Origin: Deltaproteobacteria bacterium
Lineage (GTDB): Bacteria > Desulfobacterota > Desulfobulbia > Desulfobulbales > JAJRZW01
Reading direction: 5' to 3'
Assembly: GCA_024275015.1 (NCBI GenBank)
Contig: JAJRZW010000016.1
Location: 6,899 to 70,898 of the forward strand
DNA: 64,000 bases
Made by a program: the position numbers and the translations under genes. Numbering within the stretch: the stretch's first letter is position 1; every line of letters starts with the position of its first letter. The notes under the pieces were generated by a model. That model was not told the origin of the DNA. It did not search any database and was given only the letters and a program-made list of their open reading frames with translations. Positions 1,053-64,000 of this stretch are shown here, in pieces.

Positions 1053-1304
1053 TCAACCGATACCCGGTGTCCAATCCGTAACAGACCTTTGGAAAAACCG
1101 TCCATGGCTTTTCCAAAGGTCTGTTATATTACGAAGGCCGGCAATCTTGTACCATTCGCTCCCGGCATAAGTTGTCCGGAACTCATCCGAAAGTCTCTGC
1201 GTTGACTCGGCAAGCACCTGCAGATTACGAATCACGGCATCCTGCACCAATCCATCTCGCATAAATGCCGCAAAATCAAGCCCGGCAACGATCTTCTCCC
1301 TCTG
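1053..1304 (-). pseudogene. Remnant of a DUF86/HepT-type (nucleotidyltransferase-substrate-binding, toxin-like) gene
   Basis: The frame reads ..GLDFAAFMRDGLVQDAVIRNLQVLAESTQRLSDEFRTTYAGSEWYKIAGLRNI, which resembles the DUF86 core (DAV.R.L..IGEA ... W..I.G.RN). There is an in-frame stop ~14 codons upstream of the M. The expected RN..H.Y C-terminus is replaced by sequence from a family A mini-repeat (1079..1125). Confidence 0.4.
1079..1125. repeat. Family A repeat, minimal palindromic form (both termini plus one hairpin)
   Basis: The sequence is TAACAGACCTTTGGAAAAACCGTCCATGGCTTTTCCAAAGGTCTGTTA. It carries the same termini (TAACAG..CTGTTA) and GCCATGGAC-type hairpin as the full-length copies. 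Confidence 0.7.
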
Positions 1305-4422: not shown

Positions 4423-4535
4423 TATTCGGCGATTTCCGGGCTGAAAAGTCCAGTGAAATCGAGAGGTTGAATGAAACTTGTTTTACCAAACCGACGGTTG
4501 AAAAAGCCAGGACGGCTTTCTCAACACTCTGCTAA
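4423..4535 (+). repeat. Family A repeat, partial (modules 2-5)
   Basis: The sequence is ..CGGCGATTTCCGGGCTGAAAAGTCCAGTGAAATCGAGAGGTTGAATGAAACTTGTTTTACCAAACCGACGGTTGAAAAAGCCAGGACGGCTTTCTCAACACTCTGCTAA. Confidence 0.75.
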
Positions 4536-4700
4536 GCCGTCACAGATTCAGGATAAGGTGAGCGATAGACGACCATATCCCGCCATGGAGGATCGAGTGA
4601 ACAAAAACGCGCTACGGGCCATCATCCTTTGACAAGTATCTGTATCACAAGGATAATTGAAAAAACAAAAAACAACGCGCCGGGAGAACAAAAACCCACC

Positions 4701-6623: not shown

Positions 6624-7328
6624 ATGTTTTTTTTAAAGAAGAAATCCGCCCTGAATTGCGAAGATCCCGGCGTTGCCGATAAACGAACATTTTACCGCCT
6701 TGACCTTGACCGGCCCTTTGCGGACTTTGATTTTGTCGTCTTTGATACCGAGCTGACCGGACTGAAACCGAAAAAGGACGAAATAATCTCCATCGGCGCG
6801 GTCAGAATAAAAAAAATGCGCATCGCCGCCGCCGACACCTTTCACCAGTACGCCGTCCCGGACAGGAATATTCCCACCGCCGGAACCATGGTCCACCGTA
6901 TCACTCCTGATGAACTGAAAAACGCGCGACCGATCACCAGGGTTCTGCCGGAATTCGTGCGTTTCTGCGGCAGATCCATCCTGGTCGGACATTTCATCGG
7001 CCTTGACATGTCCTTTGTCAACCGGGCCCTGAAAAAACATTTTCACTGCCGCCTCCACAATCCATGTCTTGACACCATGGTCATGGCCCGTCTCTACCAG
7101 GAAAAATGCCGGGAAGGATTTCACGACCGCTTTGACCTCAGGGTCTCGTACAATCTTCAAGACCTGAGCCACCAATTCAGTCTGCCCATATTTGCCGCCC
7201 ACGACGCCCTGGAAGACGCCATGCAGACCGCCTACCTCTTCCTCTACCTCGTTCGCAAACTTGAGCAATCGGGCTACACCACCCTGAAAGACATCCACCG
7301 GGCCAGAGGAAGCTTACCCGTCCGTTGA
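6624..7328 (+). CDS. DEDD-family 3'-5' exonuclease (DnaQ/PolIII epsilon-like)
   Basis: Exo motifs FVVFDTELTGL, ISIGAV, VGHFIGLDMSF and HDALEDA are present. It lies immediately downstream of the DUF294 gene. The stop codon (7326..7328) lies inside a family A repeat. Confidence 0.8.
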   Translation: MFFLKKKSALNCEDPGVADKRTFYRLDLDRPFADFDFVVFDTELTGLKPKKDEIISIGAVRIKKMRIAAADTFHQYAVPDRNIPTAGTMVHRITPDELKNARPITRVLPEFVRFCGRSILVGHFIGLDMSFVNRALKKHFHCRLHNPCLDTMVMARLYQEKCREGFHDRFDLRVSYNLQDLSHQFSLPIFAAHDALEDAMQTAYLFLYLVRKLEQSGYTTLKDIHRARGSLPVR

Positions 7329-7471
7329 AAAACGGACGGGTAAGCGGCGCATGGACACGCCGCCGATTTTGCCGGGTTGAAAACCCCGGTGAAATCGAGA
7401 GGTTGGCCGGAACTTGTTTTGGCCAACCGGATAGAGAAAAAGCCATGGACGGCTTTTTCAACGGTCTGTTA
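7316..7471 (+). repeat. Family A repeat, full length
   Basis: All five hairpin modules are present: CCCGTCCGTTGAAAAACGGACGGG / GGCGCATGGACACGCCGCC / CCGGGTTGAAAACCCCGG / GGTTGGCCGGAACTTGTTTTGGCCAACC / GAAAAAGCCATGGACGGCTTTTTC, ending ..GGTCTGTTA. Confidence 0.85.
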
Positions 7472-7553
7472 TGTACGCCGCGTTCAATATCTGACCCCGG
7501 GAATCTGTTGCCGCTCAGGGGTATATTCAGTAGTATTATTTAATGACGGCAAT

Positions 7554-7791
7554 GACGGCGTCGTAAAAAGTCGCAAATCATCATTTTTGATGAAGTCGTA
7601 ACAAGTATCTTGAACGGAAGTAGATCCACGTAATTTCAATAAGTTACAAGCGCAATTATCGTTAGCCCGTAATTTATTGCGAGGCCAACATTTTTGTCAT
7701 TCCTGACCTGATCCGGAATCATGAGATGAAACACATTATGGATTTCGGCCTTCGCCGGAATGACGGCAATAAGGTTTTTTTGCAAAATCAT
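7554..7791. repeat. Family B repeat carrying a 99-bp nested insertion (7590..7688)
   Basis: It aligns to 13697..13827 (GGCGTCGTAAAAA..GCAAATCATCATTTTTGTCATTCC.GAC.TGATCCGGAATCATG.GATGAAACACATTATGGATT.CGG.CTTCGCCGGAATGACGG). The insertion is flanked by the direct repeat CATTTTTG (7582..7589 and 7689..7696). Confidence 0.7.
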
Positions 7792-13516: not shown

Positions 13517-13696
13517 GTCGTTATAAACTTATGGGTATCTTGAAAAATGAGGATTTTCGTCCGAGGCCAAGGAATGAGCAAAATTAAAAAAGCGCAGTCC
13601 CGCCATGGCGTCATGAGCATTTTTCATTTTGCTCATGACACCGTAATCAGGCGAAAAGACCATTTTTCAAGATACCCTTGTCACTTTGTCACAAAT

Positions 13697-13827
13697 GATG
13701 GCGTCGTAAAAAACAGCAAATCATCATTTTTGTCATTCCGGACTTGATCCGGAATCATGTGATGAAACACATTATGGATTCCGGTCTTCGCCGGAATGAC
13801 GGAAAGAAAGGATTTTTGCGAAATCAT
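13697..13827. repeat. Family B repeat (uninterrupted reference copy)
   Basis: It contains GTCATTCCGGACTTGATCCGGAATC ... GGATTCCGGTCTTCGCCGGAATGAC, with inverted GGAAT/ATTCC arms. It fills the rsmD-asd gap together with a degenerate family D-like segment (13545..13690). Confidence 0.7.
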
Positions 13828-13828
13828 A

Positions 13829-14854
13829 TCACAAATACTTTTCAACCAGGACCTCGGCGATCTGGACCGCGTTCAGGGCCGCGCCCTTGAGGATATTATC
13901 GGCCACCACCCAGAGGTTAATGCCGTTGGCGATTGACTCGTCCTCACGGATACGGCCGACCATGGTCTCGAATTTTCCCTCACAGTCAACCGCGAGGGGA
14001 TATTGGGCCAAATCCGGCCCATCCACCACCTTTACCCCAGGGGCTGAGGCGAGAAGATCTTTTACCCCGGAAGCACTGATCTTCCTGTCAGTCTCGATAT
14101 TTACCGCCTCGGAATGGCCGTAGAACACCGGCACCCGCACGGTGGTGGCAGTGACCCCGATACCGTTATCCTCAAAGATTTTGCGGGTCTCGTTGACCAT
14201 CTTCATCTCTTCTCTGGTATAGCCGTTATCAAGAAAGATGTCGATATGGGGCAGACAGTTGAAAAGGATCTGATGCGGATAGACCTCGTGTTTAATCGTC
14301 CTGCCGGCGGCGAAGTCCTCTGCCTGCCGTCGTAATTCAGCAATCGCCGCGGCCCCGGTGCCGCTCACCGCCTGATAGGTGGATACCACGATCCTTTTTA
14401 TCCCCGCCTTATCGTAAATCGGCTTCAGAGCCACCAGCATCTGAATGGTCGAACAATTGGGATTGGCTATAATCCCGTGTTTTTTATAACCGGCAATGGC
14501 ATGGGGATTGACCTCGGGAACCACCAGGGGAATCTCAGGGTCCATGCGATAGGCACTGGAGTTATCAACCACCACCGCCCCGGCCGCCGCCGCCGCGGGG
14601 GCGAACTCAAACGAACGCGAGGCCCCGGCGGAAAAGAGGGCGATATCAATATCGGCAAAGGAATCCTTGCGCATCACCTCCACCGCGACCTCCTCGCCGC
14701 GGAATTTCAACTTCCTGCCCTCGGAACGCTCCGAGGCCAGGAGACGGAGATTATTCAGTGGAAAGTCACGGCGTTCAAGGACCTTGAGCATGGCACCGCC
14801 GACCGCGCCGGTAGCACCGGCAACCGCGACATTGAATTTTCTCTCACCCATCAC
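13829..14854 (-). CDS. asd: Aspartate-semialdehyde dehydrogenase
   Basis: The sequence shows NVAVAGATGAVGGAMLKVLE, IIANPNCSTIQM (active-site Cys) and YQAVSGTG. Confidence 0.95.
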   Translation of the reverse strand: MMGERKFNVAVAGATGAVGGAMLKVLERRDFPLNNLRLLASERSEGRKLKFRGEEVAVEVMRKDSFADIDIALFSAGASRSFEFAPAAAAAGAVVVDNSSAYRMDPEIPLVVPEVNPHAIAGYKKHGIIANPNCSTIQMLVALKPIYDKAGIKRIVVSTYQAVSGTGAAAIAELRRQAEDFAAGRTIKHEVYPHQILFNCLPHIDIFLDNGYTREEMKMVNETRKIFEDNGIGVTATTVRVPVFYGHSEAVNIETDRKISASGVKDLLASAPGVKVVDGPDLAQYPLAVDCEGKFETMVGRIREDESIANGINLWVVADNILKGAALNAVQIAEVLVEKYL

Positions 14855-16014: not shown

Positions 16015-16132
16015 CCATGCGCCGCCGATTTCATCGGAGTGAAAAACCCTGTGAAATCAAGAGGTTGACCGAAACTTGTTTTAGCCAACCGGAGTTTAGA
16101 AAACCATGGACGGCTTTTTAAACGGTCTGATA
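16015..16132 (+). repeat. Family A repeat, partial (modules 2-5)
   Basis: The sequence is ..CATGCGCCGCCGATTTCATCGGAGTGAAAAACCCTGTGAAATCAAGAGGTTGACCGAAACTTGTTTTAGCCAACCGGAGTTTAGAAAACCATGGACGGCTTTTTAAACGGTCTGATA. Confidence 0.75.
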
Positions 16133-16205
16133 TGAACCGCAGAGATCAAACAACGGCAACGAGATATACACCAAAAATCACGAAAAACGAAGGGGGAAAG
16201 ACGAC

Positions 16206-18595: not shown

Positions 18596-18644
18596 CAATA
18601 TCCAAGGATAAAGAGGTTCAAAGGAATCACCCGGACACATAAAT

Positions 18645-18797
18645 CAGTCCGTTGAAAAAACCATCCGTGGCTTTTTCAACCCTGGTTGAATCAAACAAGC
18701 TTCATCCAACCTCTCGATTTCACCGGATATTTAAACCCGGAAAAATCGGCGGCGCGGACATCAGCCGCGACCAGCCCGTTTTTCAACGGACTGTTAA
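18645..18797 (-). repeat. Family A repeat, full length (reverse orientation)
   Basis: It runs CAGTCCGTTGAAAAAACCATCCGTGGCTTTTTCAAC...GGCGGCGCGGACATCAGCCGCG..CCCGTTTTTCAACGGACTGTTAA. The terminal TTA supplies the psd stop codon. Confidence 0.85.
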
Positions 18798-19444
18798 GCA
18801 AGATACCCCAAAACCGTCTCCCCTGCCCTGACTTTTTGCCCCTTGCTGACTTCAAGCTGAATGTTAAGCGGCAGGTAGAGATCGACCCGGGAGCCGAAGC
18901 GGATAAGCCCAAAACGCTGCCCCCGTTCACATTGGTCCCCCTTTTCGACCCAGCAAACGATCCGCCGGGCGATAACTCCGGCCATCTGGACCATGGCGTA
19001 ACGACGCCTGGACGAGGTCTCGACAATCACCCCGCATGACTCATTCGACAATGCCCCCCGCTCACTGTTGGCAGCGTAAAAATTACCGGGAGAATACTTT
19101 ATCCCCACCACCCGTCCCGGAAATGAAACCCGATTGACATGAACGTTAAAGACGTTCATGAAAATACTCACCTTATAGGCATGCTCCTTGATATAACGCT
19201 CATCAAAGACCTTCTCGATCAGAATAACCTTGCCGTCGGCCGGAGAGACCATGGCGTCATCATCCATCGGCCCTACCCGCGCCGGATCACGAAAAAAGAA
19301 AAGACAGAAAAAGGCCAGGACCAGAAAAAGGCCGGCGGCAAGGGTTAAACCGAGAATCGCCGCCACCATTGTGACAAAAGCCATGGCAAAAATAAAGGGA
19401 TACCCCTCTATGGCAACCGGAACCCGCGGCTGTTTCATCTCCAC
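18794..19444 (-). CDS. psd: Phosphatidylserine decarboxylase proenzyme (short form)
   Basis: It is adjacent to pssA. It has an N-terminal TM segment, a FGSRVD self-cleavage-type G-S motif near the C-terminus and a length of ~215 aa. Confidence 0.85.
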   Translation of the reverse strand: MEMKQPRVPVAIEGYPFIFAMAFVTMVAAILGLTLAAGLFLVLAFFCLFFFRDPARVGPMDDDAMVSPADGKVILIEKVFDERYIKEHAYKVSIFMNVFNVHVNRVSFPGRVVGIKYSPGNFYAANSERGALSNESCGVIVETSSRRRYAMVQMAGVIARRIVCWVEKGDQCERGQRFGLIRFGSRVDLYLPLNIQLEVSKGQKVRAGETVLGYLA

Positions 19445-21876: not shown

Positions 21877-22025
21877 ATGGCGTCGCAATAATGCCGATCT
21901 ACCGCGTCGTGGCGTCCTTTTGTTCGCTATATCCCGCCATGGTGGATATAGCCTCGCTCTCAAAAGAACACCACTCCTTGTATATCAGAATTATTGCTTA
22001 TCCATCCCATAAATTGTTACGAGTT
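21877..22025 (+). repeat. Family D repeat
   Basis: It runs ATGGCGTCGCAATAATGCCGATCTACCGCGTCGTGGCGTCCTTTTGTTCGC...CAAAAGAACACCACTCCTTGTATATCAGAATTATTGCTTATCCATCCC..ATTGTTACGAG. It aligns with 29690..29822 and (inverted) with 31836..31980. Confidence 0.65.
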
Positions 22026-25154: not shown

Positions 25155-25272
25155 GCCTGAAAAAAAATTTCAATTATCGATTAAACAACGCAGGTTTGGC
25201 CAACCTCTCTATTTCACCGGACTTTTTTCCGGCAAAATCGGCGCGCCATCCCGTTTTTCAACGGACTGCTAA
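25155..25272 (-). repeat. Family A repeat, partial (reverse orientation; module 5 degenerate)
   Basis: The sequence is ..GGTTTGGCCAACCTCTCTATTTCACCGGACTTTTTTCCGGCAAAATCGGCGCGCCATCCCGTTTTTCAACGGACTGCTAA. The terminal CTA supplies the TAG stop of the neighbouring gene. Confidence 0.7.
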
Positions 25273-26024
25273 TCAATCGATAACCCGGCAGACGCCCCCT
25301 TCCCGGCCACGGCGGTTTTCTCTTTCTCTACCTTTACCGCCGTCACCTTGGCAAGACCGGCAATCTTGACGGTGAGAAAATCATGCTCGCTGCCGCGGGC
25401 GGGTACTGCCGCAAGGGCGGCACGATATGCCGCAAGGGCCGCGCCCTTATCACCTTTGGTCTCAAGGAGACGACCGGCGGCAAGGTTTCCCAGATAGGCA
25501 AAACCCTTTGCCGCAGCCAGGCCCCGGTATGTATTCAGAGCCTCCGCGGTCTTACCGCTGTTTTCAAGGGCGAGAGCAAGCCTGTAGGTCACCGGCAGCC
25601 GGGCCGGATTATCGGAACCAAGCTGGTCGAGAATATTGCGGTACGATTTGACCGCGGTCTCAAAATCCCCCCGGGCAAAAATATCATGAGCGAGATAAAG
25701 TGCGGCCCAGGTACCGCTTGCGGTGCCGCTGTATTCCGCAGCGACCGTCTTCATCTCCTCCTTACGGGCAGCGTCGTCGTCAATGGCCCGGGCTTTGGTA
25801 AGGGCGTTGGAAGAATTGACCATCCTCAGGTGATGATAGTAATCCCAACTCGTCCAGGAAATGAGAACAATAACGAATATCACCAGACCAATCTCAATAT
25901 AGCGAATGTTGTCCCGGATAAAGGACACCAGCTTGGGATGAAAATTAAGCTCGTGTTCAAGAAACTCGATCAGTCTCTTACGATAATCACCCTTGCGAAT
26001 CTGAAAGGTTCCGTCACCAGTCAT
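25269..26024 (-). CDS. Membrane-anchored TPR-like protein (YfgM-like architecture)
   Basis: It has one N-terminal TM (IEIGLVIFVIVLISW) followed by Ala/Leu-rich TPR-like helices. The family assignment is tentative. Confidence 0.5.
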   Translation of the reverse strand: MTGDGTFQIRKGDYRKRLIEFLEHELNFHPKLVSFIRDNIRYIEIGLVIFVIVLISWTSWDYYHHLRMVNSSNALTKARAIDDDAARKEEMKTVAAEYSGTASGTWAALYLAHDIFARGDFETAVKSYRNILDQLGSDNPARLPVTYRLALALENSGKTAEALNTYRGLAAAKGFAYLGNLAAGRLLETKGDKGAALAAYRAALAAVPARGSEHDFLTVKIAGLAKVTAVKVEKEKTAVAGKGASAGLSID

Positions 26025-29689: not shown

Positions 29690-29822
29690 ATCTACGGCGT
29701 CGAGGCGCATTGTTATTCGCTCAACTCCCACCATGGCGGGATATGGCCCTGCTCACAAAAAGCACCATCCTCCTTGTATATCGACATTCTTACTTAGCCA
29801 TCAACATATTTGTTACGAACCC
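29690..29822 (+). repeat. Family D repeat
   Basis: The sequence is ATCTACGGCGTCGAGGCGCATTGTTATTCGCTC...CACAAAAAGCACCATCCTCCTTGTATATCGACATTCTTACTTAGCCATC..TTTGTTACGAA. Confidence 0.6.
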
Positions 29823-30237: not shown

Positions 30238-30492
30238 CCTGAATCCGTGAACATCCGGGAACGGCTTCAAAGTAAACCCGAATCCGTAACGGCTTCATGT
30301 CGCCTGTATATGTATCCACTTGAATATACGAGTTTTAACCCAAACCTCACTTCGATGGAAATTTCACCCCGCCACCCGGAGGACGTCCAGGGATGACACA
30401 ACCGCTGGATCACCAACTCGTTGATATACCTAAGTATTATCAACGAGTCGTTTCCTTGCGTCCACACCGTTCCCGGACGTCGTGGATCCAGG
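30238..30492. repeat. Family C repeat (left arm duplicated, right arm degenerate)
   Basis: It runs CCTGAATCCGTGAAC..CCCGAATCCGTAACGGCTTC ... TTTCACCCCGCC ... CGTTGATATACCTAAGTATTATCAACG ... CGTGGATCCAGG. Confidence 0.65.
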
Positions 30493-33204: not shown

Positions 33205-33363
33205 TTAACAGTCGGTTGAAAAACGGGCTGGTCGCGGTGAATGTACGCGCCGCCGATTTTATTTGATTTAAAAAATCCAATAAAAATCGAGAGGTTGGCC
33301 GGAACTTGTTTTGACCAACCGGGAGTTGAAAAAACCAGAACGGCTCTTCCAACAGTCTGTTAA
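33205..33363 (+). repeat. Family A repeat, full length
   Basis: It runs TTAACAGTCGGTTGAAAAACGGGCTGGTCGCGG...GCGCCGCCGATTTT...AAATCGAGAGGTTGGCCGGAACTTGTTTTGACCAACC..GTTGAAAAAACCAGAACGGCTCTTCCAACAGTCTGTTAA, with TTAA at both ends. Confidence 0.85.
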
Positions 33364-33481
33364 TCGTTCAAAAGCGGATCGGACGCACGCAGACAGGCAA
33401 CGATGTTGATAATACTCGGATCAACGAATTGCCGATAAAACAGCTGTCCAACAAGACCGATGCCGCGTCCGGGCGTCGCTG

Positions 33482-33643
33482 TCATTCCATGTTTTCAATC
33501 GCCTGATAAGCAACCTGATAAGCAATAAGTAGAACAAAGACGGAGACAATGCAAGTTATGTTCCCGGTATCCCGTAAATCCCCTGCCGCCTTTTTCCCTT
33601 TCCAACCACCGAGATTTGCTTTAAACTCAGGCCGCATAGCCAT
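33482..33643 (-). CDS. Possible small membrane protein (53 aa), very tentative
   Basis: Manual translation gives MAMRPEFKANLGGWKGKKAAGDLRDTGNITCIVSVFVLLIAYQVAYQAIENME. AGGGG lies 3 nt upstream of the ATG and there is one hydrophobic segment. It is below the track length cut-off and no homology is recognised. Confidence 0.2.
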   Translation of the reverse strand: MAMRPEFKANLGGWKGKKAAGDLRDTGNITCIVSVFVLLIAYQVAYQAIENME

Positions 33644-35859: not shown

Positions 35860-36366
35860 ATGCTTGGCCCGAAACGACTGACCAGATATTACCAGCTCCG
35901 CTTTCAACGCCTGAAAGGCGATCCCCGCTACCTTGCCCGGGGGATAGCCCTGGGGACCTTTATCGGCGTCACCCCAACCATCCCCCTGCACACCGTCCTT
36001 ACCCTGGCCCTGTCGGTCATCCTCCGAACCAGCAAAATCCCGGCACTTCTGGCCACGGTCGCGGTCAGCAATCCCCTGACCTTTTTCCTGCAATATTACC
36101 TCGCCTGGCGCATCGGCAATTTTATCCACCCCGGGGTCCTCTCCTGGGAAAGAGTAATGACAATGATGACCATACTAAGGACCCACGAAAGCTTTGCCGT
36201 CTGCCTTAACGCCGTCGGGGGCCTTGGTTTCGACGCCGCCACTGTTCTCCTGAGCGGCGGGATAATCATCGCCACCCCCATGGCACTGGGGGGGTATTTC
36301 ATTTCCCTGCGTTTCTTCACCGCCATCGCGGACAAAAAAGACCGGAAAAAGCATGAACCGCAGTGA
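35860..36366 (+). CDS. DUF2062-family membrane protein
   Basis: The sequence shows GDPRYLARGIALGTFIGVTPTIPLHTVL plus further TM segments. Confidence 0.65.
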   Translation: MLGPKRLTRYYQLRFQRLKGDPRYLARGIALGTFIGVTPTIPLHTVLTLALSVILRTSKIPALLATVAVSNPLTFFLQYYLAWRIGNFIHPGVLSWERVMTMMTILRTHESFAVCLNAVGGLGFDAATVLLSGGIIIATPMALGGYFISLRFFTAIADKKDRKKHEPQ

Positions 36367-37216
36367 AATAAAAAAAAACCTGGTCCACCACGGGCTTGCG
36401 CCAAGCAAACAACGAGGACAGAACTTCCTTGCCGACCCGATAATGGCGGCGGCCATTGTCCGCGCCGGCGGCATCAATCCCGGGGACACGGTGATCGAAC
36501 TGGGCGTCGGTCTAGGTGCTGTGACCCTGCCGCTCGCGGCAGTGGCGGCAAGGGTAATCGGCATTGAGATCGACTCCGGCATTGTCGATTATCATCACCG
36601 CCGCCAGGACCTGCCCGCCAACGTCGAACTCCACCACCAGGACATGCTCACCTGCGATTTCGCCGCCATCGCGGCCCGGAACAAAAACAGGCTGAAAATA
36701 ATAGCCAACCTCCCCTACTCGGTCTCAAGTCCGCTGCTGTTCAAACTCCTTGACCACCGCGACCTGATGGAATACGCCGTCCTCATGCTGCAGAAGGAAC
36801 TGGCCCAGCGCCTGGTGGCCCGGCCGGGGACAAAAGACTATTCAATCCTTACCGTCCTCTTTGCCGCCTCGGCCAGGGCCCGAAAGGTGATGGCGGTAGG
36901 GCCGGAAAACTTTCACCCCCGACCAAAAGTAGACTCAGCCGTGGTCCGGATTGACTTTCTCCCGGCCGGAGAAAGAGAAAGCCTTTATCCTCCCCATGAT
37001 TTCAAGTCCCTGGTCCGGGTGGTGAAGGCCGCCTTCAGCCAGCGGCGCAAGACCCTGTTAAACTGCCTCAAGGCCGGAAGACTGATCGCCGACCGCAGCC
37101 AGGGGGAAAAAATTCTTACCGGTCTCGGCATCGACAGCGGCATCAGGGCCGAACGTCTGAGCGTCAAAGAATTTATCAAATTGACCCTGAAATTGGGTGA
37201 ATCAGCAATCCATTGA
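36353..37216 (+). CDS. rsmA: 16S rRNA (adenine1518/1519-N6)-dimethyltransferase
   Basis: The sequence shows KQRGQNFLADP, VIELGVGLGAVT and IIANLPYSVSSPLL. The stop codon (37214..37216) lies inside a family A repeat. Confidence 0.95.
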   Translation: MNRSEIKKNLVHHGLAPSKQRGQNFLADPIMAAAIVRAGGINPGDTVIELGVGLGAVTLPLAAVAARVIGIEIDSGIVDYHHRRQDLPANVELHHQDMLTCDFAAIAARNKNRLKIIANLPYSVSSPLLFKLLDHRDLMEYAVLMLQKELAQRLVARPGTKDYSILTVLFAASARARKVMAVGPENFHPRPKVDSAVVRIDFLPAGERESLYPPHDFKSLVRVVKAAFSQRRKTLLNCLKAGRLIADRSQGEKILTGLGIDSGIRAERLSVKEFIKLTLKLGESAIH

Positions 37217-37310
37217 AAAACGGGGGTGGTAGCCGCGCATGGACGCGCCGCCGATTCTACCGGGTTTGAAAAACCCACTTGAATCAAGAGGTTGGCCGGA
37301 ACTTGTTTTA
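37210..37310 (+). repeat. Family A repeat, truncated (modules 1-4a)
   Basis: The sequence is CCATTGAAAAACGGGGGTGGTAGCCGCGCATGGACGCGCCGCCGATTCTACCGGGTTTGAAAAACCCACTTGAATCAAGAGGTTGGCCGGAACTTGTTTT. Confidence 0.75.
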
Positions 37311-37365
37311 AAAAAGAAAATCAGTCTATCAACCATCAACCCTGTGATGGCTTACGGCGGCACAA

Positions 37366-39234: not shown

Positions 39235-39450
39235 CCTGAATCCGTGACGGCTTGGTGCCTTTTTAAGGCTTGAGTAAATGATTGTCCGTTGTTTAATTAT
39301 CCACCCCCCGGCGGTAGATTCACCCCGCCGTCCTACAGGGCGTCAGGGATCAGGCCACCTGTTTTTTCGGCAACTCGTTGATACACTCGAGCATCATCAA
39401 CGAGTTGTCTTCGCGCATCCGGCCAATCCCTAACGCTCACGGATTCAGGC
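39235..39450. repeat. Family C repeat, full length
   Basis: The perfect 13-bp terminal inverted repeats are CCTGAATCCGTGA / TCACGGATTCAGG. Internal parts are TTCACCCCGCCG..GGGCGTC and the hairpin CGTTGATACACTCGAGCATCATCAACG. Confidence 0.8.
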
Positions 39451-44457: not shown

Positions 44458-44581
44458 TTAACAGACTGCTGACCAAAACAAGTTCCGGCCAACCTCTCGA
44501 TTTTATTGTTTTTTTCAAACCAAATAAAATCGACGGCGCGTCCATGCGCCGCGACAAGCCCGTTTTTCAACGGACTGTTAA
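44458..44581 (-). repeat. Family A repeat lacking module 5 (reverse orientation)
   Basis: The sequence is TTAACAGACTGCTGACCAAAACAAGTTCCGGCCAACCTCTCGATTTT...CGACGGCGCGTCCATGCGCCGCGACAAGCCCGTTTTTCAACGGACTGTTAA, with TTAA at both ends. Confidence 0.8.
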
Positions 44582-44601
44582 GGGATTCAGAGAGCGCTTA
44601 C

Positions 44602-44961: not shown

Positions 44962-44976
44962 GAAATTTAGCCGCCC

Positions 44977-45071
44977 GTTCAAAAAGCCGTCCATGACTTT
45001 AAAGACTCTGACCGGCCCAAACAAGATCCGGCCAACTTCTTGATTTAACCGGGTTTTTCAACGGACTTACA
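44977..45071 (-). repeat. Family A repeat, partial and degenerate
   Basis: The sequence is GTTCAAAAAGCCGTCCATGACTTTAAAG..GGCCCAAACAAGATCCGGCCAACTTCTTGATTTAACCGGGTTTTTCAACGGACTTAC. Confidence 0.65.
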
Positions 45072-46338: not shown

Positions 46339-46469
46339 CTACCTGCTTCCTCCTGAAATAACAGCTCCGAAAAGCGGTCCGGTTAAAATTACCGCCTGGA
46401 ACCAATTTGTGGCATCAGGAATCCCCGACGCCAGCTTGTTTATTTTACAAATCCCGAAACAATAGAATC

Positions 46470-46625
46470 TAACAGACCGTTGAAAAAGCCGTCCATGGCT
46501 TTTTCAGCTCCGGTTGACCAAAACGAGATCCGGCCAACCTCTCAATTTAACCTGGGTTTTCAACCCGACAAAATCGGCGGCGCGGACATCAGCCGCGTAC
46601 AACCCGTTTTTCCATGGACTGCTAA
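46470..46625 (-). repeat. Family A repeat, full length (reverse orientation)
   Basis: It runs TAACAGACCGTTGAAAAAGCCGTCCATGGCTTTTTCAGC..GGTTGACCAAAACGAGATCCGGCCAACC..GGCGGCGCGGACATCAGCCGCG..CCCGTTTTTCCATGGACTGCTAA. Confidence 0.85.
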
Positions 46626-48974: not shown

Positions 48975-49086
48975 CCGCATGACAACACGTTAAAAAAACA
49001 GGTAAAATCGAGAGGTTGGGCAAAAAATTGTTTTGGCCAACCTGAGTTTAAAAAAGCCATGGACGGATTGTTCAAATCTCTGATAA
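48975..49086 (+). repeat. Family A repeat, partial (modules 3-5)
   Basis: The sequence is ..AAAAAAACAGGTAAAATCGAGAGGTTGGGCAAAAAATTGTTTTGGCCAACCTGAGTTTAAAAAAGCCATGGACGGATTGTTCAAATCTCTGATA. Confidence 0.7.
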
Positions 49087-49149
49087 AAAATTCGAGGGTG
49101 TCATACGACGCAAAGAAAAAACCGGAAGACAGATAACCCTGCCTTCCGG

Positions 49150-49235
49150 TTTGCGATATTTTGACGGCCTCGTAAAAAGTCGCAAATCATCATTCTTGTT
49201 GTTGTTCAGGATTTGCCCTGGAACCTGTAATGTAA
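49150..49235. repeat. Family B repeat, divergent/partial
   Basis: The sequence is GACGGCCTCGTAAAAAGTCGCAAATCATCATTCTTGTTGTTGTTCAGGATTTGCCCTGGAACC.... The first ~45 bp match the other family B copies. Confidence 0.5.
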
Positions 49236-50541: not shown

Positions 50542-50652
50542 CTTTTCATCTCCTCAAACAGAACCCTATAAAAAAAAGCCGAAGGGACCCCCCTCCGGCT
50601 TGATTATCCCCTCTCTGCGGAGGATGCAATATCCCGGGCAAAAACGCCCGGC

Positions 50653-50681
50653 AAACAGACTGTTGAAAAAACGGGCTGTTA
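50653..50681. repeat. Family A repeat, minimal form (termini plus hairpin 1)
   Basis: The sequence is AACAGACTGTTGAAAAAACGGGCTGTTA. The terminal TTA is the stop codon of rplY. Confidence 0.6.
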
Positions 50682-51507: not shown

Positions 51508-51720
51508 CAGAAGCCAAGGTTTTTATCATAAGCTCCTGTTTTTTACAAGATCTCTTTTGCAAAAACCAGTGCGATGGCCTTTTGAAGAACAGAATGTTGC
51601 GGCCCCGGAACATACCACATCCACCCGCCAACCCAGAAAGAGCAAAGAATCCAAGCGGTTGAACGAGTCCGGCCCGGGCCAACCGGGGCTAAAAGCAAAG
51701 ACGACTTTTCTTTCAGGCCA

Positions 51721-52662: not shown

Positions 52663-52767
52663 GGCTCCTCGTAAACGGATATTTAAGGTAGAGTTTAAAA
52701 TTCTTATGTTCCATGGAGTTACGTTCCATGTCAGCATAAAAAAACAGTCAATCAATCCCATAAGGGG

Positions 52768-53003
52768 AACAGAGCTGATCGTCCAGAGCGGGACATCTCG
52801 GCCAAGGGCCATCCGGCGAGGAATGTTCCGATCTGGACAAGCAGTTCTGGAGCCATAGCACCCCTATGCGAACAGAGCTGATCGTCCAGAGCGGGACATC
52901 TCGGCCAAGGGCCATCCGGCGAGGAATGTTCCGATCTGGACAAGCAGTTCTGGAGCCATAGCACCCCTATGCGAACAGAGCTGATCGTCCAGAGCGGGAC
53001 ATT
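52768..53003. repeat. Tandem direct repeat, 103-bp unit x 2.3, abutting the 3' end of tRNA-Gln
   Basis: Units start at 52768, 52871 and 52974. Units 1 and 2 are identical base for base by eye. Unit 3 is cut after 29 nt where the tRNA trailer begins. Confidence 0.9.
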
Positions 53004-53079
53004 CCTCGCCGGATGGCTGGGGCGGGAGGATTCGAACCTCCGAATGCAGGAGTCAAAGTCCTGTGTCTTAACCACTTGA
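53004..53079 (-). tRNA. tRNA-Gln (anticodon UUG), CCA encoded
   Basis: The hand fold gives acceptor TGGGGCG/CGCCCCA, anticodon arm CAGGA-CTTTGAC-TCCTG, T-loop GGAGGTTCGAATCCTCC, discriminator G and CCA. The track ORF 52752..53090 crossing it is spurious. Confidence 0.9.
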
Positions 53080-53150
53080 CTACGCCCCACCGTTTAAAAA
53101 GGCATAAATTCCGGTTTACGACAAATTTACGTCTCAACAACCAGGGCTCA

Positions 53151-54526: not shown

Positions 54527-54746
54527 CCTGAATCCGTGACGGCTTCGAGGGCTATTAAAGCGCATCCGTTTGAACCAGCGCGTTTTTGGCCGGGTTGCCG
54601 TTTGGGTGCCAGGTTCACCCCGCCGCCCTTCGGGGCGTCCGAGAGCGGACCATCTGCTGTGTCGGCAACCCGTTGATATACCGAAGTATTATCAACGTGG
54701 TTGCCTCCTTGCATCTGGCCCGCTCTCGAACGCTCACGAATTCAGG
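54527..54746. repeat. Family C repeat, full length, with a 6-bp flanking direct repeat
   Basis: It runs CCTGAATCCGTGACGGCTT ... GGTTCACCCCGCCGCCCTTCGGGGCGTCC ... CGTTGATATACCGAAGTATTATCAACG ... GCTCACGAATTCAGG. TTAAAG lies immediately on both sides (54521..54526 and 54747..54752). Confidence 0.8.
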
Positions 54747-57032: not shown

Positions 57033-57047
57033 GGTACTCTCCTCATT

Positions 57048-57205
57048 TTAACAGCCCGTTGAAAAACGGGCTGATTGCGACTGATGTCCGCGCCGCCGAT
57101 TTTACCGGGTTTAAAAACCCGGTAAAATCGAGAGGTTGGATGAAACTTGTTTTATCCAACCGGCGGTTGAAAAAGACAGGACGACTTTATTCAACACTCT
57201 GTTAA
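57048..57205 (+). repeat. Family A repeat, full length (best reference copy)
   Basis: The sequence is TTAACAGCCCGTTGAAAAACGGGCTGATTGCGACTGATGTCCGCGCCGCCGATTTTACCGGGTTTAAAAACCCGGTAAAATCGAGAGGTTGGATGAAACTTGTTTTATCCAACCGGCGGTTGAAAAAGACAGGACGACTTTATTCAACACTCTGTTAA. Confidence 0.88.
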
Positions 57206-59629: not shown

Positions 59630-59782
59630 TTAGCAGACTGTTGAAAAAGCCGTCCTGGCTTTTTCAACTCCCGGTTGACCAAAACAAGCTCCGGCCAACA
59701 TCTCGATTTCACTGGGTTTTTCAACCCGGTGAAATCGGCGGCGCGTCCGTGCGCCGCGACCAGCCCGTTTTTCAACGGGCTG
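59630..59782 (-). repeat. Family A repeat, full length (reverse orientation)
   Basis: It runs TTAGCAGACTGTTGAAAAAGCCGTCCTGGCTTTTTCAAC..GGTTGACCAAAACAAGCTCCGGCCAAC..GGCGGCGCGTCCGTGCGCCGCG..CAGCCCGTTTTTCAACGGGCTG. Confidence 0.85.
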
Positions 59783-59918
59783 GTCGCGACCGATCCCATG
59801 AAAATCCATGCGACAGGTTCCTGCTGAAACGACTTCAACCGCAAGGCCTGTATTACCCGGAGCCATCAATTTCCCTTGACAAACAAAGGGGTGTCATCTA
59901 TTTATCTCATAAAAAATG

Positions 59919-59992
59919 ATGGGGGATGGTCTAAGGGTAAGACAGCAGACTCTGACTCTGCCTATCGGGGTTCGAATCCCTGTCCCCCAGCC
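59919..59992 (+). tRNA. tRNA-Gln (anticodon CUG), CCA encoded
   Basis: The hand fold gives acceptor TGGGGGA/TCCCCCA, D arm GTCT-AAGGGTA-AGAC, anticodon arm GCAGA-CTCTGAC-TCTGC, T arm CGGGG-TTCGAAT-CCCTG, then G and CCA, followed by a T8 run. Confidence 0.88.
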
Positions 59993-60273
59993 ATTTTTTT
60001 TATTCTTCTGCCTTCTGCTCTCCGCCTGAAAAACAGTGACATGAATTGTCGACAACATCCATAAATGACACTTTTTGTCATAAAAGCCGGACTGCCAGAA
60101 AGAACCAAACCAGGGCGGCAGGCCGTGAAAAAACAGGGAAAACATATTTTTTACTTGAGTTTCACCTCTGGCACATTATATGAATATATAATAACAGACG
60201 TAGGCTACAAACCCGGAGACAACGGGAAAAGTCAAGCTGAATACTTCAACAACACCTTATGGAGGGAGAGAAC

Positions 60274-60726
60274 ATGCTCAAGATGCTCAGAAACACAAAC
60301 AAGGACAAGGGTTTCACCCTGATCGAGCTGATGATCGTTGTCGCGATCATCGGTATCCTCGCCGCGGTCGCCATCCCGGCGTACATGACCTATATTCAAA
60401 AATCCCGGGTCACCTCCCTGGTATTCCCAGGAATGCATTCTATAGAGACCAGCGTCGGCCTCATGTATGCAACCCAGAGCACCATGCCCCTTACCCAAGC
60501 CGACCTCAACCGGGTAATGTCTGATGCGGATACTACTTATTTTGCTGTTGACACCACAAACGTTGGTGGAGTAAGAGGCATAGAGTTTACCATCCTGAAA
60601 ACAGCCAGATTTAAAAATCTTGGGAGCAAGTCCATTATTGCAATACCTTCCTATGCTAACGGTAAAATCGCAAAATGGAACCTCAGCGGTTCCGTTGCCG
60701 AGTTGCTGGCTTTAGACAAGGAATAG
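60274..60726 (+). CDS. pilA: Type IV (major-type) pilin precursor
   Basis: [13 protein letters not shown]|[24 protein letters not shown] is a class III signal peptide with the G-1/F+1/E+5 prepilin peptidase site. GGAGGGAG lies 5-6 nt upstream of 60274; the track ATG at 60259 lies inside this SD. Confidence 0.88.
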
Positions 60727-60766
60727 AAGGCTTTTTACCTCAAAGCCCCAGCACATCTTACAAAAA

Positions 60767-60803
60767 CAGGGAGGAGGCGAAAGCCTCTTCCCTGTTGTTG
60801 TTC
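60767..60803 (+). terminator. Intrinsic terminator downstream of the pilin gene
   Basis: The hairpin is CAGGGAGGAGGC-GAAA-GCCTCTTCCCTG (12 bp, one G-U, GNRA loop), followed by TTGTTGTTCT. Confidence 0.75.
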
Positions 60804-60840
60804 TACCCAAGCACCCTAAACCACACGCAACGGAACAACC

Positions 60841-63201
60841 ATGCCGGGAAGACAAGGCCAAAATCCACACAAGATACTTACACCCAACCGCCTTTTAGTA
60901 ATCATATTTTTCCTCACTGCTCTTGCGTACAGTAACACATTGTTCTCCCCTCTTACCCTGGACGACAAGAGTTCGTTTGTCGACTCCAGTCGTATGTATG
61001 TATCAAAATTTTCATTCAATACCCTAAAGCAATTAAGTAATACCAGGTTCGGACTTTCACGTTTTATCCCCATTGCGACATTTGCGGCAAACAATTATTT
61101 CAGCCATGGACGCGCGGTCGACTACCACCTGACCAATATTGTGATACATCTCCTCACCATCTCCACCCTGTTCTTTTTCCTGAAAAACCTATTCAGAACC
61201 CCACAAGCAAAAGACAAAATAAAATTTCTTACCCCGGATACATTTGCCATTGCCATATGCGGCGTATGGGCCCTAAATCCAGTACAGACCAATGCTGTCA
61301 CTTATCTTGTCCAACGAATGACCTCCATCGCAACATTGTTCTATCTGGCGTCACTAGGATTTTATATCAAGGCACGCCTAAGCCACGATACAAAGGTCAA
61401 AATCATTGCCACAACAATGGCCTTCTTTTGTGCCGCGGCATCATTTTTATCAAAAGAAATAAGCGCGACCCTACCGCTGATTATCCTATTGATCGAATTC
61501 ATGTTCATAAGCCCAAATCGGATCTCAAAAACAACAAAGGACATACAGTCATGGCCATGGATTATCGCAGGACTCATAATTGCAGCAATATTAATCATTC
61601 CTATTCTCGAGGGTCCTTTTAAATCAATCGTCCTGAATCAATACAATATCCGAAGATTCACATTAGGAGAGAGGCTTTTAACAGAGGCACGAGTAGTAAT
61701 ATGGTATATAAGCTTACTTATTCTGCCTTTACCTGCACGAATGAACTTGGACCATGATGTCAATGTCTCTCTCGGACTATTTTCTCCACCATCCACCTTA
61801 ATATCAATTATCTCTATAGTAATATTAATAAGCACCGCATGGAAGCAACATAAGAAAAATCCATTATTAAGCTTAGGCATATACTGGTTTTTTATTAACT
61901 TATTGATAGAATCGACAGTAATCCCACTTGAGCTTATCTTTGAACACCGATTATATTTACCGTCTATTGGTATATTTATTGTATTAATGGTCATATTTGA
62001 CAAATCACTATATTTTACAAATACTAAAATTACCAACGATAAATTAAACGATTTAGCGATATTGTTCATTTTGATAGTATTCTCACTGTCATCTATTTTA
62101 ACCACGTTAAGAAATGACGACTGGCGCAATAAATTATCAATATACCGAGACTGCGCCTTAAAATCTCCAAACAAACCCAGAGCACTTGCAAACTATGGCA
62201 TGGCACTCGGGCAGTCAGGACAATACGACAAGGCCATAACCTTATTCGAGCGAGCCATAAAGGCAGGGCGAAAAAATTACGAGAACTATATTCCAGTTGC
62301 ATCGAATATAGTTCTGTCAACATACCTAAAAGGAGAAAAAATACAGGCCATAAAAAAAGCAAAACAGCTGTACAAAAACATGCCAGAAGGAACAGGAAAG
62401 TTAGGATTAAACCTTTTTCTGCTGAATCTCAGTGAAATGTATCTTGATACCGGCAACACTATTGCCGCTTACGAATTCTGGCGATCAGCCAGTAGGCTTT
62501 ACACCCCTGACACCAATTACAAAACCATACCATTGCTACTGAAAATAATCAAAAATGCAACCCAATCCCCTTCTGACGCGAAAGGAATTGGCCTTGACCT
62601 GACTGTTCCTGATGAAATAGCGGCACAAGAGAAATTGGCATCGTGCCTACTCGATATCAAAGACTACAATAAAGCTTCGCTATTTATAAACAATCTTGTC
62701 TCATCTTCCTATAACAATAGAACGACAAAACGCCTAAAAGAACGTCTTACAAAAGAACTAAGAAAAAACAATGCTGCCATCAGTGAAATGGATATAAAAC
62801 GATCAAAAAATTATACTAAGTCTTTAGGCTACAGGTGGGGAATGAGGACGGCAAATTTTATCATTAAGCATTACCAACCACTCAAAAAAATATGCAGCAT
62901 TATTCTTGATAAACTTGCACAAGACTTTAAAGATGACCCATTTGTCTTATGGTACAAATTACTGCTTCAAAAGATAACACCACCATACCAAATTGACCCG
63001 GAATTAATAAAAAAAGGTATATCCAGACACCCAAATTTCATACCATTCCTTCGTTTGCAACTCGCGTACGAATACTCAGCGGGAAAACGGGAAAAAGCAT
63101 TAGATACAATAAACAAAATCAACACAGTTTATCCCGGAAATAAAAACTGGCAGAATTACGAAAAATTAAAACGCGCAATAGCAGCAAAGGATCACATATA
63201 A
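60841..63201 (+). CDS. Polytopic membrane protein with C-terminal TPR repeats (TMTC-like GT-C glycosyltransferase architecture)
   Basis: The N-terminal ~420 aa have about 10 hydrophobic segments. The first loop carries LFSPLTLDDKSSF (the FxxDD-type acidic motif of PMT/TMTC-like GT-C enzymes). The C-terminal ~350 aa carry TPR-like repeats (ALANYGMALGQSGQYDKAITLFERAIK). Codon usage is AT-rich. Confidence 0.6.
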   Translation: MPGRQGQNPHKILTPNRLLVIIFFLTALAYSNTLFSPLTLDDKSSFVDSSRMYVSKFSFNTLKQLSNTRFGLSRFIPIATFAANNYFSHGRAVDYHLTNIVIHLLTISTLFFFLKNLFRTPQAKDKIKFLTPDTFAIAICGVWALNPVQTNAVTYLVQRMTSIATLFYLASLGFYIKARLSHDTKVKIIATTMAFFCAAASFLSKEISATLPLIILLIEFMFISPNRISKTTKDIQSWPWIIAGLIIAAILIIPILEGPFKSIVLNQYNIRRFTLGERLLTEARVVIWYISLLILPLPARMNLDHDVNVSLGLFSPPSTLISIISIVILISTAWKQHKKNPLLSLGIYWFFINLLIESTVIPLELIFEHRLYLPSIGIFIVLMVIFDKSLYFTNTKITNDKLNDLAILFILIVFSLSSILTTLRNDDWRNKLSIYRDCALKSPNKPRALANYGMALGQSGQYDKAITLFERAIKAGRKNYENYIPVASNIVLSTYLKGEKIQAIKKAKQLYKNMPEGTGKLGLNLFLLNLSEMYLDTGNTIAAYEFWRSASRLYTPDTNYKTIPLLLKIIKNATQSPSDAKGIGLDLTVPDEIAAQEKLASCLLDIKDYNKASLFINNLVSSSYNNRTTKRLKERLTKELRKNNAAISEMDIKRSKNYTKSLGYRWGMRTANFIIKHYQPLKKICSIILDKLAQDFKDDPFVLWYKLLLQKITPPYQIDPELIKKGISRHPNFIPFLRLQLAYEYSAGKREKALDTINKINTVYPGNKNWQNYEKLKRAIAAKDHI

Positions 63202-64000
63202 ATGCAGTTCAATATCCCAACGAGAGTCGAACTCGCCAACATCTCACCTCACCCCCCGAGCAAACTTCCCCTCACAGAGCATTTAACAGCGTTCTTCTTC
63301 CTGTCTTTACTTAACCCCGCTGTATATCACATCAACCACAGTATCTCATCAATGTTCCCTGACTCAATTGCCTACATAACGTTAGCAAAAAATATGCTTA
63401 ATAACGGGGCATTGGCCCTCAAAGGCTGGGGGCATGTCGACAATGGAGTAATATTGTCACCATTCTATCCTTTCCTGATCGGTATTGTACGATTATTCCG
63501 CGATGACGGCTTTCTTGCCGCCCAATACATCAGTAACATATCGATGATACTCGCCCCTTTCGCAATGTACACATGCCTCCGCTACCACACCGGACGCTTC
63601 ACAGCTTTTTTTACAGTTCTTCTCATACAACTAAATTTTTTCTACTTATATTATGCACTTTCCCCCTTGACAGAGGCAATATTTCTCCTGCTCATCGTTT
63701 GCGGTTTTCTCTTAGTGTACGCCATATCAAAAAAAGACAGCCCAAAGACCTCCTATTTTCTCCTCGGGGTCAACTCTTCCCTTATTGCATTGACAAGACA
63801 GATAGGTATAGTATTTTTTATATCTATATTGATATATCTTACCTATCAGTATAGAAACAAAATTTCAAAGCACAATTTATTTAAATTACTATATCTGGTT
63901 CTTGGCTTTATTTTTTTGTTTCTGCCGTACAACCTGATAATTTACAATTATACCAATCATTCATTCCTTACCCAAATATACAGAATGAATAAATATACGG
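63202..64000 (+). CDS. Polytopic membrane protein, ArnT/PMT_2-like GT-C glycosyltransferase candidate (partial; continues past the right edge)
   Basis: Manual translation from the ATG at 63202 (1 nt after the previous stop) gives MQFNIPTRVELANISPHPPSKLPLTEHLTAFFFLSLLNPAVY...FPDSIAYITLAKNML.... The frame is open for 266 codons to the window end, with several TM segments. It is not in the track because no stop lies in the window. Confidence 0.5.
   Translation, partial: MQFNIPTRVELANISPHPPSKLPLTEHLTAFFFLSLLNPAVYHINHSISSMFPDSIAYITLAKNMLNNGALALKGWGHVDNGVILSPFYPFLIGIVRLFRDDGFLAAQYISNISMILAPFAMYTCLRYHTGRFTAFFTVLLIQLNFFYLYYALSPLTEAIFLLLIVCGFLLVYAISKKDSPKTSYFLLGVNSSLIALTRQIGIVFFISILIYLTYQYRNKISKHNLFKLLYLVLGFIFLFLPYNLIIYNYTNHSFLTQIYRMNKYT

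Follow-up and report, generated by a model that had tools for sequence, protein, structure and literature searches.

A dispersed five-hairpin repeat with features of a miniature inverted-repeat transposable element in a Desulfobulbales chromosome

The DNA analysed here, a stretch of 64,000 nt from contig JAJRZW010000016.1 (hereafter the window), is ordinary chromosome with the housekeeping genes ilvBN, leuA, leuB, psd, pssA, panC, panD, rho, prfA, coaE, pth, the L25 gene, prs, serA and cysS. Neither a transposase gene nor a Y1/RAYT gene was detected among the genes of the window with Pfam and NCBIfam, which, for the transposase, bears out an earlier note made from the sequence alone. Non-coding DNA makes up 22% of the window; it holds every copy of a dispersed repeat that we designate family A, save for a few bases where copies meet the ends of genes. 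The element measures 149 bp without its flanks and approximately 157 bp with the 4-bp flanks. Counted within the window, there are 16–18 copies in 64 kb (approximately 1 copy per 4 kb), and 16 copies account for 3.1% of the total sequence (13% of the non-coding part).

The earlier note had listed 16 copies in both orientations, and each of these sites was recovered with a profile hidden Markov model (HMM) built from the 7 longest copies and with a covariance model (R1, filters off); a repeat finder placed overlapping families at all of them as well. The copies comprise 7 full-length elements (covariance-model scores of 143–169 bits, E-values of 1e-40 to 1e-47), 7 partial elements that are deleted or truncated, and 2 minis, with 2 weak fragments in addition (Table 1). 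The large apparent gene overlap of the copy starting at 4427 is due to the over-extended TTG start of the UDP-glucose dehydrogenase open reading frame (ORF), the Pfam domain of which begins at residue 61. Six-frame translation of the copies revealed no frame that is both open and conserved across them.

Deletion derivatives that keep their termini, as previously described, were seen at 44458, 44965 and 37202. The minis had been taken for termini plus one hairpin; each indeed contains one hairpin, but the first has two right termini and the second is module 1 alone. In the copy at 44965–45066 the DNA between the GTTGAAAAAC repeat of module 1 and that of module 3 has been deleted, and a deletion of the same type, joining the left terminus to module 3, was found in protein P0001 of another genome. 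The internal GTTGAAAAAC direct repeats account for the short forms of family A. The idea that the copies 44458–44584 and 44965–45066 are the two halves of one insertion-split copy was rejected on the basis of their wrong module order.

Table 1. Position and support of family A copies in the window, of the parts of the focal copy, and of a second element (locus L011) with the same termini
Feature	Position	Strand	Support or remark
Focal full-length copy including both flanks (TTAA...TTAA)	57048..57205	+	covariance model 157.8 bits, E=1.9e-44
Focal copy: left target-site duplication copy TTAA	57048..57051	+	same 4-mer on both sides
Focal copy: module 1 hairpin CAGCCCG-TTGAAAAA-CGGGCTG; first 15 nt are the left inverted repeat	57052..57073	+	helix 1 paired in 88-92% of cells
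Focal copy: module 2 GC-rich hairpin, CATGGAC-type loop, imperfect in this copy	57077..57097	+	helix 2 paired in 96.5% of cells
Focal copy: module 3 long hairpin CGATTTTACCGGG-TTTAAAAA-CCCGGTAAAATCG	57097..57130	+	helix 3, double-sided changes in 10/15 pairs across families
Focal copy: module 4 hairpin GGTTGGAT-GAAACTTGTTTT-ATCCAACC	57134..57161	+	helix 4 paired in 95.6% of cells
Focal copy: module 5 hairpin GTTGAAAAAG-loop-CTTTATTCAAC, partly decayed in this copy; 3' arm enters right inverted repeat	57166..57195	+	helix 6
Focal copy: right target-site duplication copy TTAA	57202..57205	+	same 4-mer on both sides
Full-length copy	7314..7472	+	168.6 bits; RNase T-like gene 6624-7328 enters by 15 nt
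Full-length copy between psd and pssA, within operon, sense	18641..18797	-	160.9 bits; Pfam
Full-length copy, TTAA/TTAA flanks, divergent intergenic region	33205..33363	+	143.8 bits
Full-length copy upstream of rho, TTAG/TTAG flanks	46469..46625	-	150.4 bits
Full-length copy between prs and L25 gene	51351..51507	-	154.1 bits
Full-length copy between Memo-like gene and tRNA-Gln, antisense to flanking transcription	59630..59786	-	165.2 bits
5'-truncated copy, modules 3-5 and right terminus	4427..4536	+	nhmmer 53-164, E=2.3e-24; covariance model E=3.8e-16
5'-truncated copy between leuB and leuA, antisense to both	16018..16135	+	nhmmer 48-165, E=3.7e-32
Decayed copy; left terminus and modules 1, 3 and 4 discernible	25168..25274	-	nhmmer 5-131, E=2.7e-16
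Internal-deletion copy: modules 1-4 (module 4 5' arm) and right-terminus remnant	37202..37332	+	HMM, covariance model, sequence
Copy without module 5, both termini kept, TTAA/TTAA flanks	44458..44584	-	99.8 bits; module 4 joined to right terminus
Copy with left terminus fused to module 3	44965..45066	-	HMM, sequence
5'-truncated copy, antisense to flanking genes	48983..49086	+	HMM, covariance model; terminator adjoins at 49119-49152
Mini palindrome: module 5 between two right termini	1077..1128	.	nhmmer matches on both strands
Mini: module 1 hairpin alone, terminus-like ends	50650..50680	+	nhmmer, sequence
Weak fragment, left-end region	33448..33511	-	nhmmer E=0.0016; covariance model does not confirm
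Weak fragment, module 4-5 region	51647..51711	+	nhmmer E=0.0057; covariance model does not confirm
Copies of the second element of L011	about 700-948 (-), 14222-14440 (+), 18660-18919 (-)		in L011

Read on the sense strand, the consensus of family A begins with NTAN, followed by module 1 (CAGTCCG-TTGAAAAA-CGGGCTG), GT, module 2 (CGCGGCGC-ATGGAC-GCGCCGCC), module 3 (GATTTCACCGGG-TTGAAAAA-CCCGGTGAAATC), GAGA, module 4 (GGTTGGCCGAAA-CTTG-TTTTGGCCAACC), GGA, module 5 (GTTGAAAAAGCC-ATGGAC-GGCTTTTTCAAC), GGTCTG and, again, NTAN. Since CAGNCCGTTGAAAAA stands at the left end and recurs in reverse-complemented form at the right one, the true terminal inverted repeat is 15 nt long, and it is present in the consensus of the window family as well as in that of the related family described below. 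The ends had previously been described as inverted repeats of about 19 nt: their inverted nature stands, but the length does not, as the outer tetranucleotide is a direct repeat lying outside the inverted one.

Family A has relatives in metagenome genomes of other Desulfobacterota. In the GTDB species genomes, a DNA pattern that covers modules 2–4 had no match; because the relatives differ within that pattern, this zero shows only that the subfamily of the window type is absent from them. The same pattern revealed one true copy in metagenomes (locus L081, 210–366; near-consensus, 187 bits), the match in L082 being due to chance. Family A is open in several reading frames and is therefore translated by gene callers. 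A peptide search with the six frames concatenated returned P0001 alone, a window-peptide profile gave three true matches (P0003, P0004 and P0005) among 1.84 billion representative proteins, and a word-indexed search seeded with the peptides of these three yielded nine proteins and the contigs L087–L095. The covariance model detected full copies in all of these contigs, several in each (7 in the 19.5 kb of L088), their density being similar to that in the window. They originate from a hydrothermal-vent metagenome, the metagenome-assembled genomes (MAGs) GCA_015488275.1 and GCA_027073345.1, and two JGI samples; their GC content is 59–65%, and the MurA-like protein of L094 is 68% identical to that of the window. 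Like the spurious peptides noticed earlier in the window, the database proteins P0001 and P0003–P0012 are partly or wholly translations of family A, e.g. the N-terminus of the 286-aa lipoprotein-like P0001 and a part of the 'Hpt domain-containing' P0004; the element-derived parts of these proteins are annotation artefacts.

The consensus of the related family is 78% identical to that of the window and contains the same five modules. Solo forms consisting of modules 1 and 2 were found in L088 and L090. Long variants of approximately 240 nt, in which the module 3 loop contains some 80 nt of additional GC-rich sequence, are present in L087 (10068–10305), L090 (10008–10248) and L092 (1495–1735).

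The outer four bases of family A proved to be a 4-bp direct target-site duplication of the type NTAN, usually YTAR. We compared the 4-mers flanking CAG...CTG in 20 copies from the window and the related contigs in which both ends are recognisable. The flanks were identical in 10 of them, compared with 1.5 ± 1.1 when the right flanks were permuted (P<1e-5); with permutation restricted to the same source 2.8 identical flanks are expected, and none of 100,000 permutations reached 10. If the tetranucleotide were part of the inverted repeat, TTAG at the left end would be answered by CTAA at the right; TTAG...TTAG was observed instead (46469–46625), which identifies a direct duplication. Perfect duplications were also found in the metagenome copy of L081 (ATAA/ATAA) and in related contigs (ATAG/ATAG twice, GTAA/GTAA, CTAG/CTAG twice). 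Among the 14 copies with a non-palindromic left flank, five show it as a direct repeat (TTAG, ATAA, ATAG twice and GTAA) and none as an inverted one. A 2-bp TA duplication, as in IS630/Tc1-like elements, was considered and rejected: it requires complementary outer bases, and these are identical as direct repeats. The earlier proposal that the YTAR ends are the duplicated target was correct with respect to a 4-bp, TA-centred duplication; strict YTAR was too narrow, as 6 of the 10 perfect duplications fit it, the others being ATAG (twice), ATAA and GTAA.

The five-hairpin layout first read by eye was reproduced by RNAalifold, which predicted exactly the five hairpins plus a short closing helix, and the hairpins are kept through compensatory changes. 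In 15 copies 87.9% of the pair cells hold standard pairs (32–52% with the partners slid by 1–3 columns), and 21 pairs show double-sided changes, compared with 9.2 ± 2.0 in shuffled alignments (0 of 500 reached 21). Pair counts of this kind lean towards the structure, the underlying alignments having been fitted to the model; sliding and shuffling therefore served as controls. Helix 4 shows a compensated double change from GGCC/GGCC to GGAT/ATCC. A joint alignment of the two families gave 91.4% paired cells and 67 cells with double-sided changes (25 ± 4 in shuffles). Between the families, the stem of module 3 is mostly rewritten with its pairing retained, GTTGAAAAA/TTTTTCAAC of module 5 is changed to GTCGAAAAA/TTTTTCGAC in a compensated manner, and the upper stem of module 2, outside the five modelled pairs, has changed from GCGC/GCGC to GCAC/GTGC; module 4 and the loops (TTGAAAAA and CA[T/G]GGAC) are conserved. 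The predicted fold of the focal copy has an energy of -70.8 kcal/mol (z = -7.8), and the values for single copies range from -49 to -93 kcal/mol.

Strong covariation in all five hairpins, within and between families, and the conservation of the loops speak for another explanation, namely that the copies of family A are structured RNA modules which act in cis (to stabilise or process mRNA or as scaffolds that bind proteins) and are kept by the host for their function, with mobility being incidental or extinct. The strand preference of the fold points in the same direction: in 12 of 15 copies the fold of the sense strand is the more stable of the two (for the consensus, -60.2 vs -42.8 kcal/mol for sense and antisense), and the sense strand has 71 G-U pairs as opposed to 28 A-C mismatches. 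However, most of this G-U excess falls at positions fixed in the consensus, so that the events are not independent. Unidirectional contexts are suggestive as well, with 8 copies in sense and 3 in antisense orientation (3 further copies lie in divergent regions); this bias is not significant and the related contigs are mixed. Against host-kept RNA modules stand the occurrence of 7 copies in each orientation, with antisense copies in both the window and the related contigs, and the target-site duplications, truncated and mini forms and unshared positions, all of which are traits of mobile elements. Moreover, the copies have no promoter or terminator of their own, and no Rfam family matches them even at E<=10. 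A role as intrinsic terminator was ruled out, as clear terminators lie beside copies (49119–49152 and 50576–50601) and not inside them; a terminator scan flagged a single element hairpin, module 2 of the 44458 copy. No family-wide promoter was found in a scan of 44–60 kb, in which promoter-like sites overlap only two copies (at 57045 and 48983). We regard the RNA modules as an improbable account of the family as a whole.

The nearest relatives in species-representative genomes are Desulfobulbales MAGs (CysS 63–65% identical), and the order of genes from rho to cysS is conserved in Desulfobulbales relatives. Family A is absent from all 80 related loci fetched from the cysS neighbourhoods of these relatives. 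Two spacers holding large copies could be compared with syntenic relatives, whose proteins are approximately 50–80% identical: that between the L25 gene and prs measures 397 nt in the window vs 21–184 nt in 10 relatives, and that between the rluD-like gene and carD 460 nt vs 78–287 nt in 7 relatives. Copies are located within operons (psd-pssA, leuA-leuB, prs-rplY-pth, rho), often right at stop codons; the stop codon of psd, for instance, lies in the TTAA flank of the adjacent copy (18794–18797). The RNase T-like gene and an rsmA-like gene (36353–37216) run into copies (7314–7328 and 37202–37216, respectively) and are ended there by the TGA within the module 1 GTTGAAAAA; the insertions have thus supplied or replaced C-terminal and stop codons here.

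The motif GTTGAAAAA occurs 3–4 times per element, recurring within modules 3 and 5, and 22 times in the window, where 0.92 occurrences are expected from shuffles (24-fold over-representation). Repeated motifs placed between genes could represent conserved regulatory DNA, recognised by a nucleoid or regulatory protein and not mobile. Such an assignment is very hard to reconcile with the unrelated functions of the flanking genes (leu, ilv, psd/pssA, rho, prs, cysS), with copies being equally frequent at promoters and at 3' ends or within operons, with the absence of the sites from syntenic relatives, and with the target-site duplications, and we consider it highly unlikely.

The short-hairpin mosaic, its high density in intergenic DNA and the occurrence of modules on their own (the minis and the solo forms of modules 1 and 2) are also reminiscent of REP/BIME-type palindromic composites spread by RAYT (IS200/IS605-like Y1) enzymes acting on single-stranded hairpins. 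Family A, however, lacks a conserved GTAG-type 5' tetranucleotide and has five differing modules in fixed order and orientation, not alternating REPs. It also carries true terminal inverted repeats and a 4-bp target duplication; Y1 transposition is not known to leave such a duplication. The one-strand bias expected for IS200/IS605-like elements was ruled out: 7 copies lie on each DNA strand and the GC skew of the window is uniform, so there is no bias to one replication strand. As stated above, the window contains no RAYT gene. One further observation fits the REP/BIME comparison. In L094, a 1.75-kb insertion sequence (IS) of the IS110 family (947–2695; PF01548 DEDD_Tnp_IS110 and PF02371) sits exactly within the loop of module 5, the halves of the element lying at 2828–2696 and 946–922 (junctions ...GTTGAAAAAGCCAG / ATATAATGGTTGACGG ... 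CCGTCAACCATAT / CAGGGATGGCTTTTTCAAC...). The family A repeat thus serves as a landing site for IS110, and IS621 inserts likewise into REPs of Escherichia coli (cited in PMC3184786). On balance, we see very little prospect that family A is a RAYT-spread composite. The insertion in L094 is, in its own right, a candidate natural target for a recombinase of the bridge-RNA type.

Family A could not be assigned to any catalogued family, as had been suspected. In an Rfam search of the window only three tRNAs reached the gathering score; the element itself matched no family even at E<=10 (the best sub-threshold score was 19 bits against a threshold of 59), and nothing was matched in the related loci L087, L088 and L094. 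No blastn match was obtained in a plasmid collection, and the element pattern is absent from viral contigs, four matches of which to module 1 alone were attributed to chance, so that a plasmid or phage origin was dismissed. Full-text literature searches (core strings of the element; MITEs in Desulfobulb*) returned nothing relevant. Family A is apparently an undescribed member of a well-known class, that of miniature inverted-repeat transposable elements (MITEs), from a lineage in which we found no earlier description of an element of this kind.

When all fetched loci were scanned for the terminus, three copies of a different element came to light in L011 (PKTX01000001.1, from a Desulfobulbaceae MAG; Table 1). 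It measures approximately 200–250 nt and combines the same termini, CAGNCCGTTGAAAA(A), with an unrelated interior, which suggests a shared transposase recognition site: the 15-mer may be recognised in several non-autonomous families. To judge from these sequences, the second family argues that an autonomous IS with such termini exists.

Taken together, the inverted repeats, the duplication of fixed length, the dispersed copies confined to non-coding DNA, the deletions that keep the ends, the absence from syntenic relatives, where spacers are shorter, and the second family with the same ends are best explained if family A is a MITE, a non-autonomous DNA transposon on which a DDE-type transposase acts in trans, and we consider this probable; the MITE-like behaviour noticed at the outset is thereby substantiated. 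Such an enzyme, encoded elsewhere in the genome, would bind the termini and insert the element at NTAN sites (mostly TTAA, TTAG and CTAG) by a 4-bp staggered cut, giving rise to the 4-bp direct duplication. Copies would build up between genes only, often exactly at stop codons containing TAA or TAG, housekeeping operons included, and would then degenerate into short and mini forms through point mutations and through deletions between the direct GTTGAAAAAC repeats inside them. As most copies lie inside transcription units, they are very probably co-transcribed. A transcribed copy would form a very stable multi-hairpin block (-50 to -90 kcal/mol), which could affect the processing or stability of the mRNA.

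Several observations weigh against the identification of family A as a MITE moved in this way. Neither the window nor any of the 95 fetched loci yielded an autonomous IS bearing these termini, and half of the copies lack a perfect duplication, which decay would predict, although this is not proven. The CAG start of the termini is not known to be usual for IS5-family ends. Insertion polymorphism at strain level was not seen among the near-identical contig pairs compared (99.9% identity), which carry identical sets of copies. Finally, families that are only 78% identical share the entire internal set of hairpins, maintained by compensatory changes, and the fold, including its loops, has been kept by compensation across lineages whose core proteins are approximately 50–80% identical (order-level divergence; 68% for the single protein compared with an element-bearing locus). 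Recognition of inverted repeats alone would not need a conserved fold, which implies some further constraint on the structure. Family A might go beyond a purely selfish MITE: the five-hairpin fold may be the working unit of an unusual type of transposition that depends on hairpins, or a module adopted by the host as RNA punctuation for the processing or stability of mRNAs from housekeeping operons; we hold this to be unlikely.

A model of the family would help to clean up the annotation of genomes and MAGs of Desulfobulbales and other Desulfobacterota. Because copies lie in essential operons and have altered the 3' end of two or more genes, family A offers a natural system in which to study how polycistronic mRNAs tolerate, or are shaped by, a highly structured insert. 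The 15-nt terminus common to two unrelated elements is a search key for the transposase.

Intergenic repeats abound in the host genome in general. Besides family A, the window contains at least three unrelated families of such repeats (30399–30445, 39316–39402 and 54611–54697; 7553–7592, 13696–13735 and 49162–49201; 7686–7791 and 13722–13827; 21962–22022 and 29758–29818). Two further spacers are enlarged: that from the DUF1844 gene to serA (385 nt vs -15 to 180 nt in relatives), with one such repeat in it, and that from prs to ispE (338 nt vs -1 to 183 nt in relatives), with a tRNA-Gln gene and a perfect 103-bp tandem repeat. The latter (52767–53002; 2.3 copies, 100% identical) lies between tRNA-Gln(ttg) (53014–53089) and prs, overlaps the over-extended start of the prs ORF, and is either a recent duplication or an assembly artefact. 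At 60000–64000 the GC content falls from approximately 55% to 38–43%, just past tRNA-Gln(ctg) (59920–59993). Two proteins are encoded here, a pilin-like one that bears an N-terminal methylation motif (60259–60726) and a 786-aa TPR protein (60841–63201); the segment looks like an island inserted beside a tRNA gene.

With regard to known systems, a MITE of the IS5 group, Chunjie, is listed for Geobacter uraniireducens in PMC3184786, and the target duplication motif of IS5 is YTAR (PMC10359306). Family A resembles this group in its 4-bp, TA-centred duplication, most perfect examples of which are YTAR, and differs from it in the four that are not and in termini starting with CAG. YTAR duplications have also been reported for elements of the IS701 family, so the transposase could belong to IS5, IS701 or another family; a link to the IS5 group is plausible.

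The nearest behavioural analogue of family A appears to be bcr1 of the Bacillus cereus group, an element of about 150–160 bp; ERIC and Correia are near analogues as well. In its modular build family A recalls BOX and BIME. According to PMC3184786, bcr1 is dispersed at strain-variable positions, is bordered by short direct repeats, is transcribed, and has predicted, independent stem-loops kept by compensatory changes. It differs in its 5-bp duplication, its cruciform of two stem-loops and its Firmicutes host, compared with the 4-bp NTAN duplication, five hairpins and 15-nt inverted repeat of family A. ERIC (IRU, RU-1) of Enterobacteriaceae is an intergenic MITE of approximately 127 bp with inverted repeats and a TA-containing flank (PMC3184786); the element is conserved across genera. 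It forms one long imperfect palindrome next to its TA flank, whereas family A has five local hairpins and a 4-bp duplication and is much denser (approximately 1 copy per 4 kb) than ERIC in E. coli. Wilson and Sharp reportedly noted in 2006 that the RNA secondary structure of ERIC is conserved.

The Correia (NEMIS) elements of Neisseria insert beside and within transcription units and form structured RNA. They are characterised in PMC3184786 as MITEs of 104–157 bp with inverted repeats and size classes due to internal deletion, and also by a TA duplication, 26-bp inverted repeats, IHF sites and promoters. The latter four traits were not found in family A. BOX of Streptococcus pneumoniae and the BIMEs of E. 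coli are, like family A, modular, with modules that may be lost or occur alone, and form stable predicted RNA. They vary in the number or the alternating orientation of their modules and show no clear combination of inverted repeat and duplication; family A differs in the fixed order of its five modules, its inverted repeats and its target duplication. What sets family A apart from all elements compared is the 4-bp NTAN duplication, the 15-nt CAGNCCGTTGAAAAA ends and the fixed string of five hairpins.

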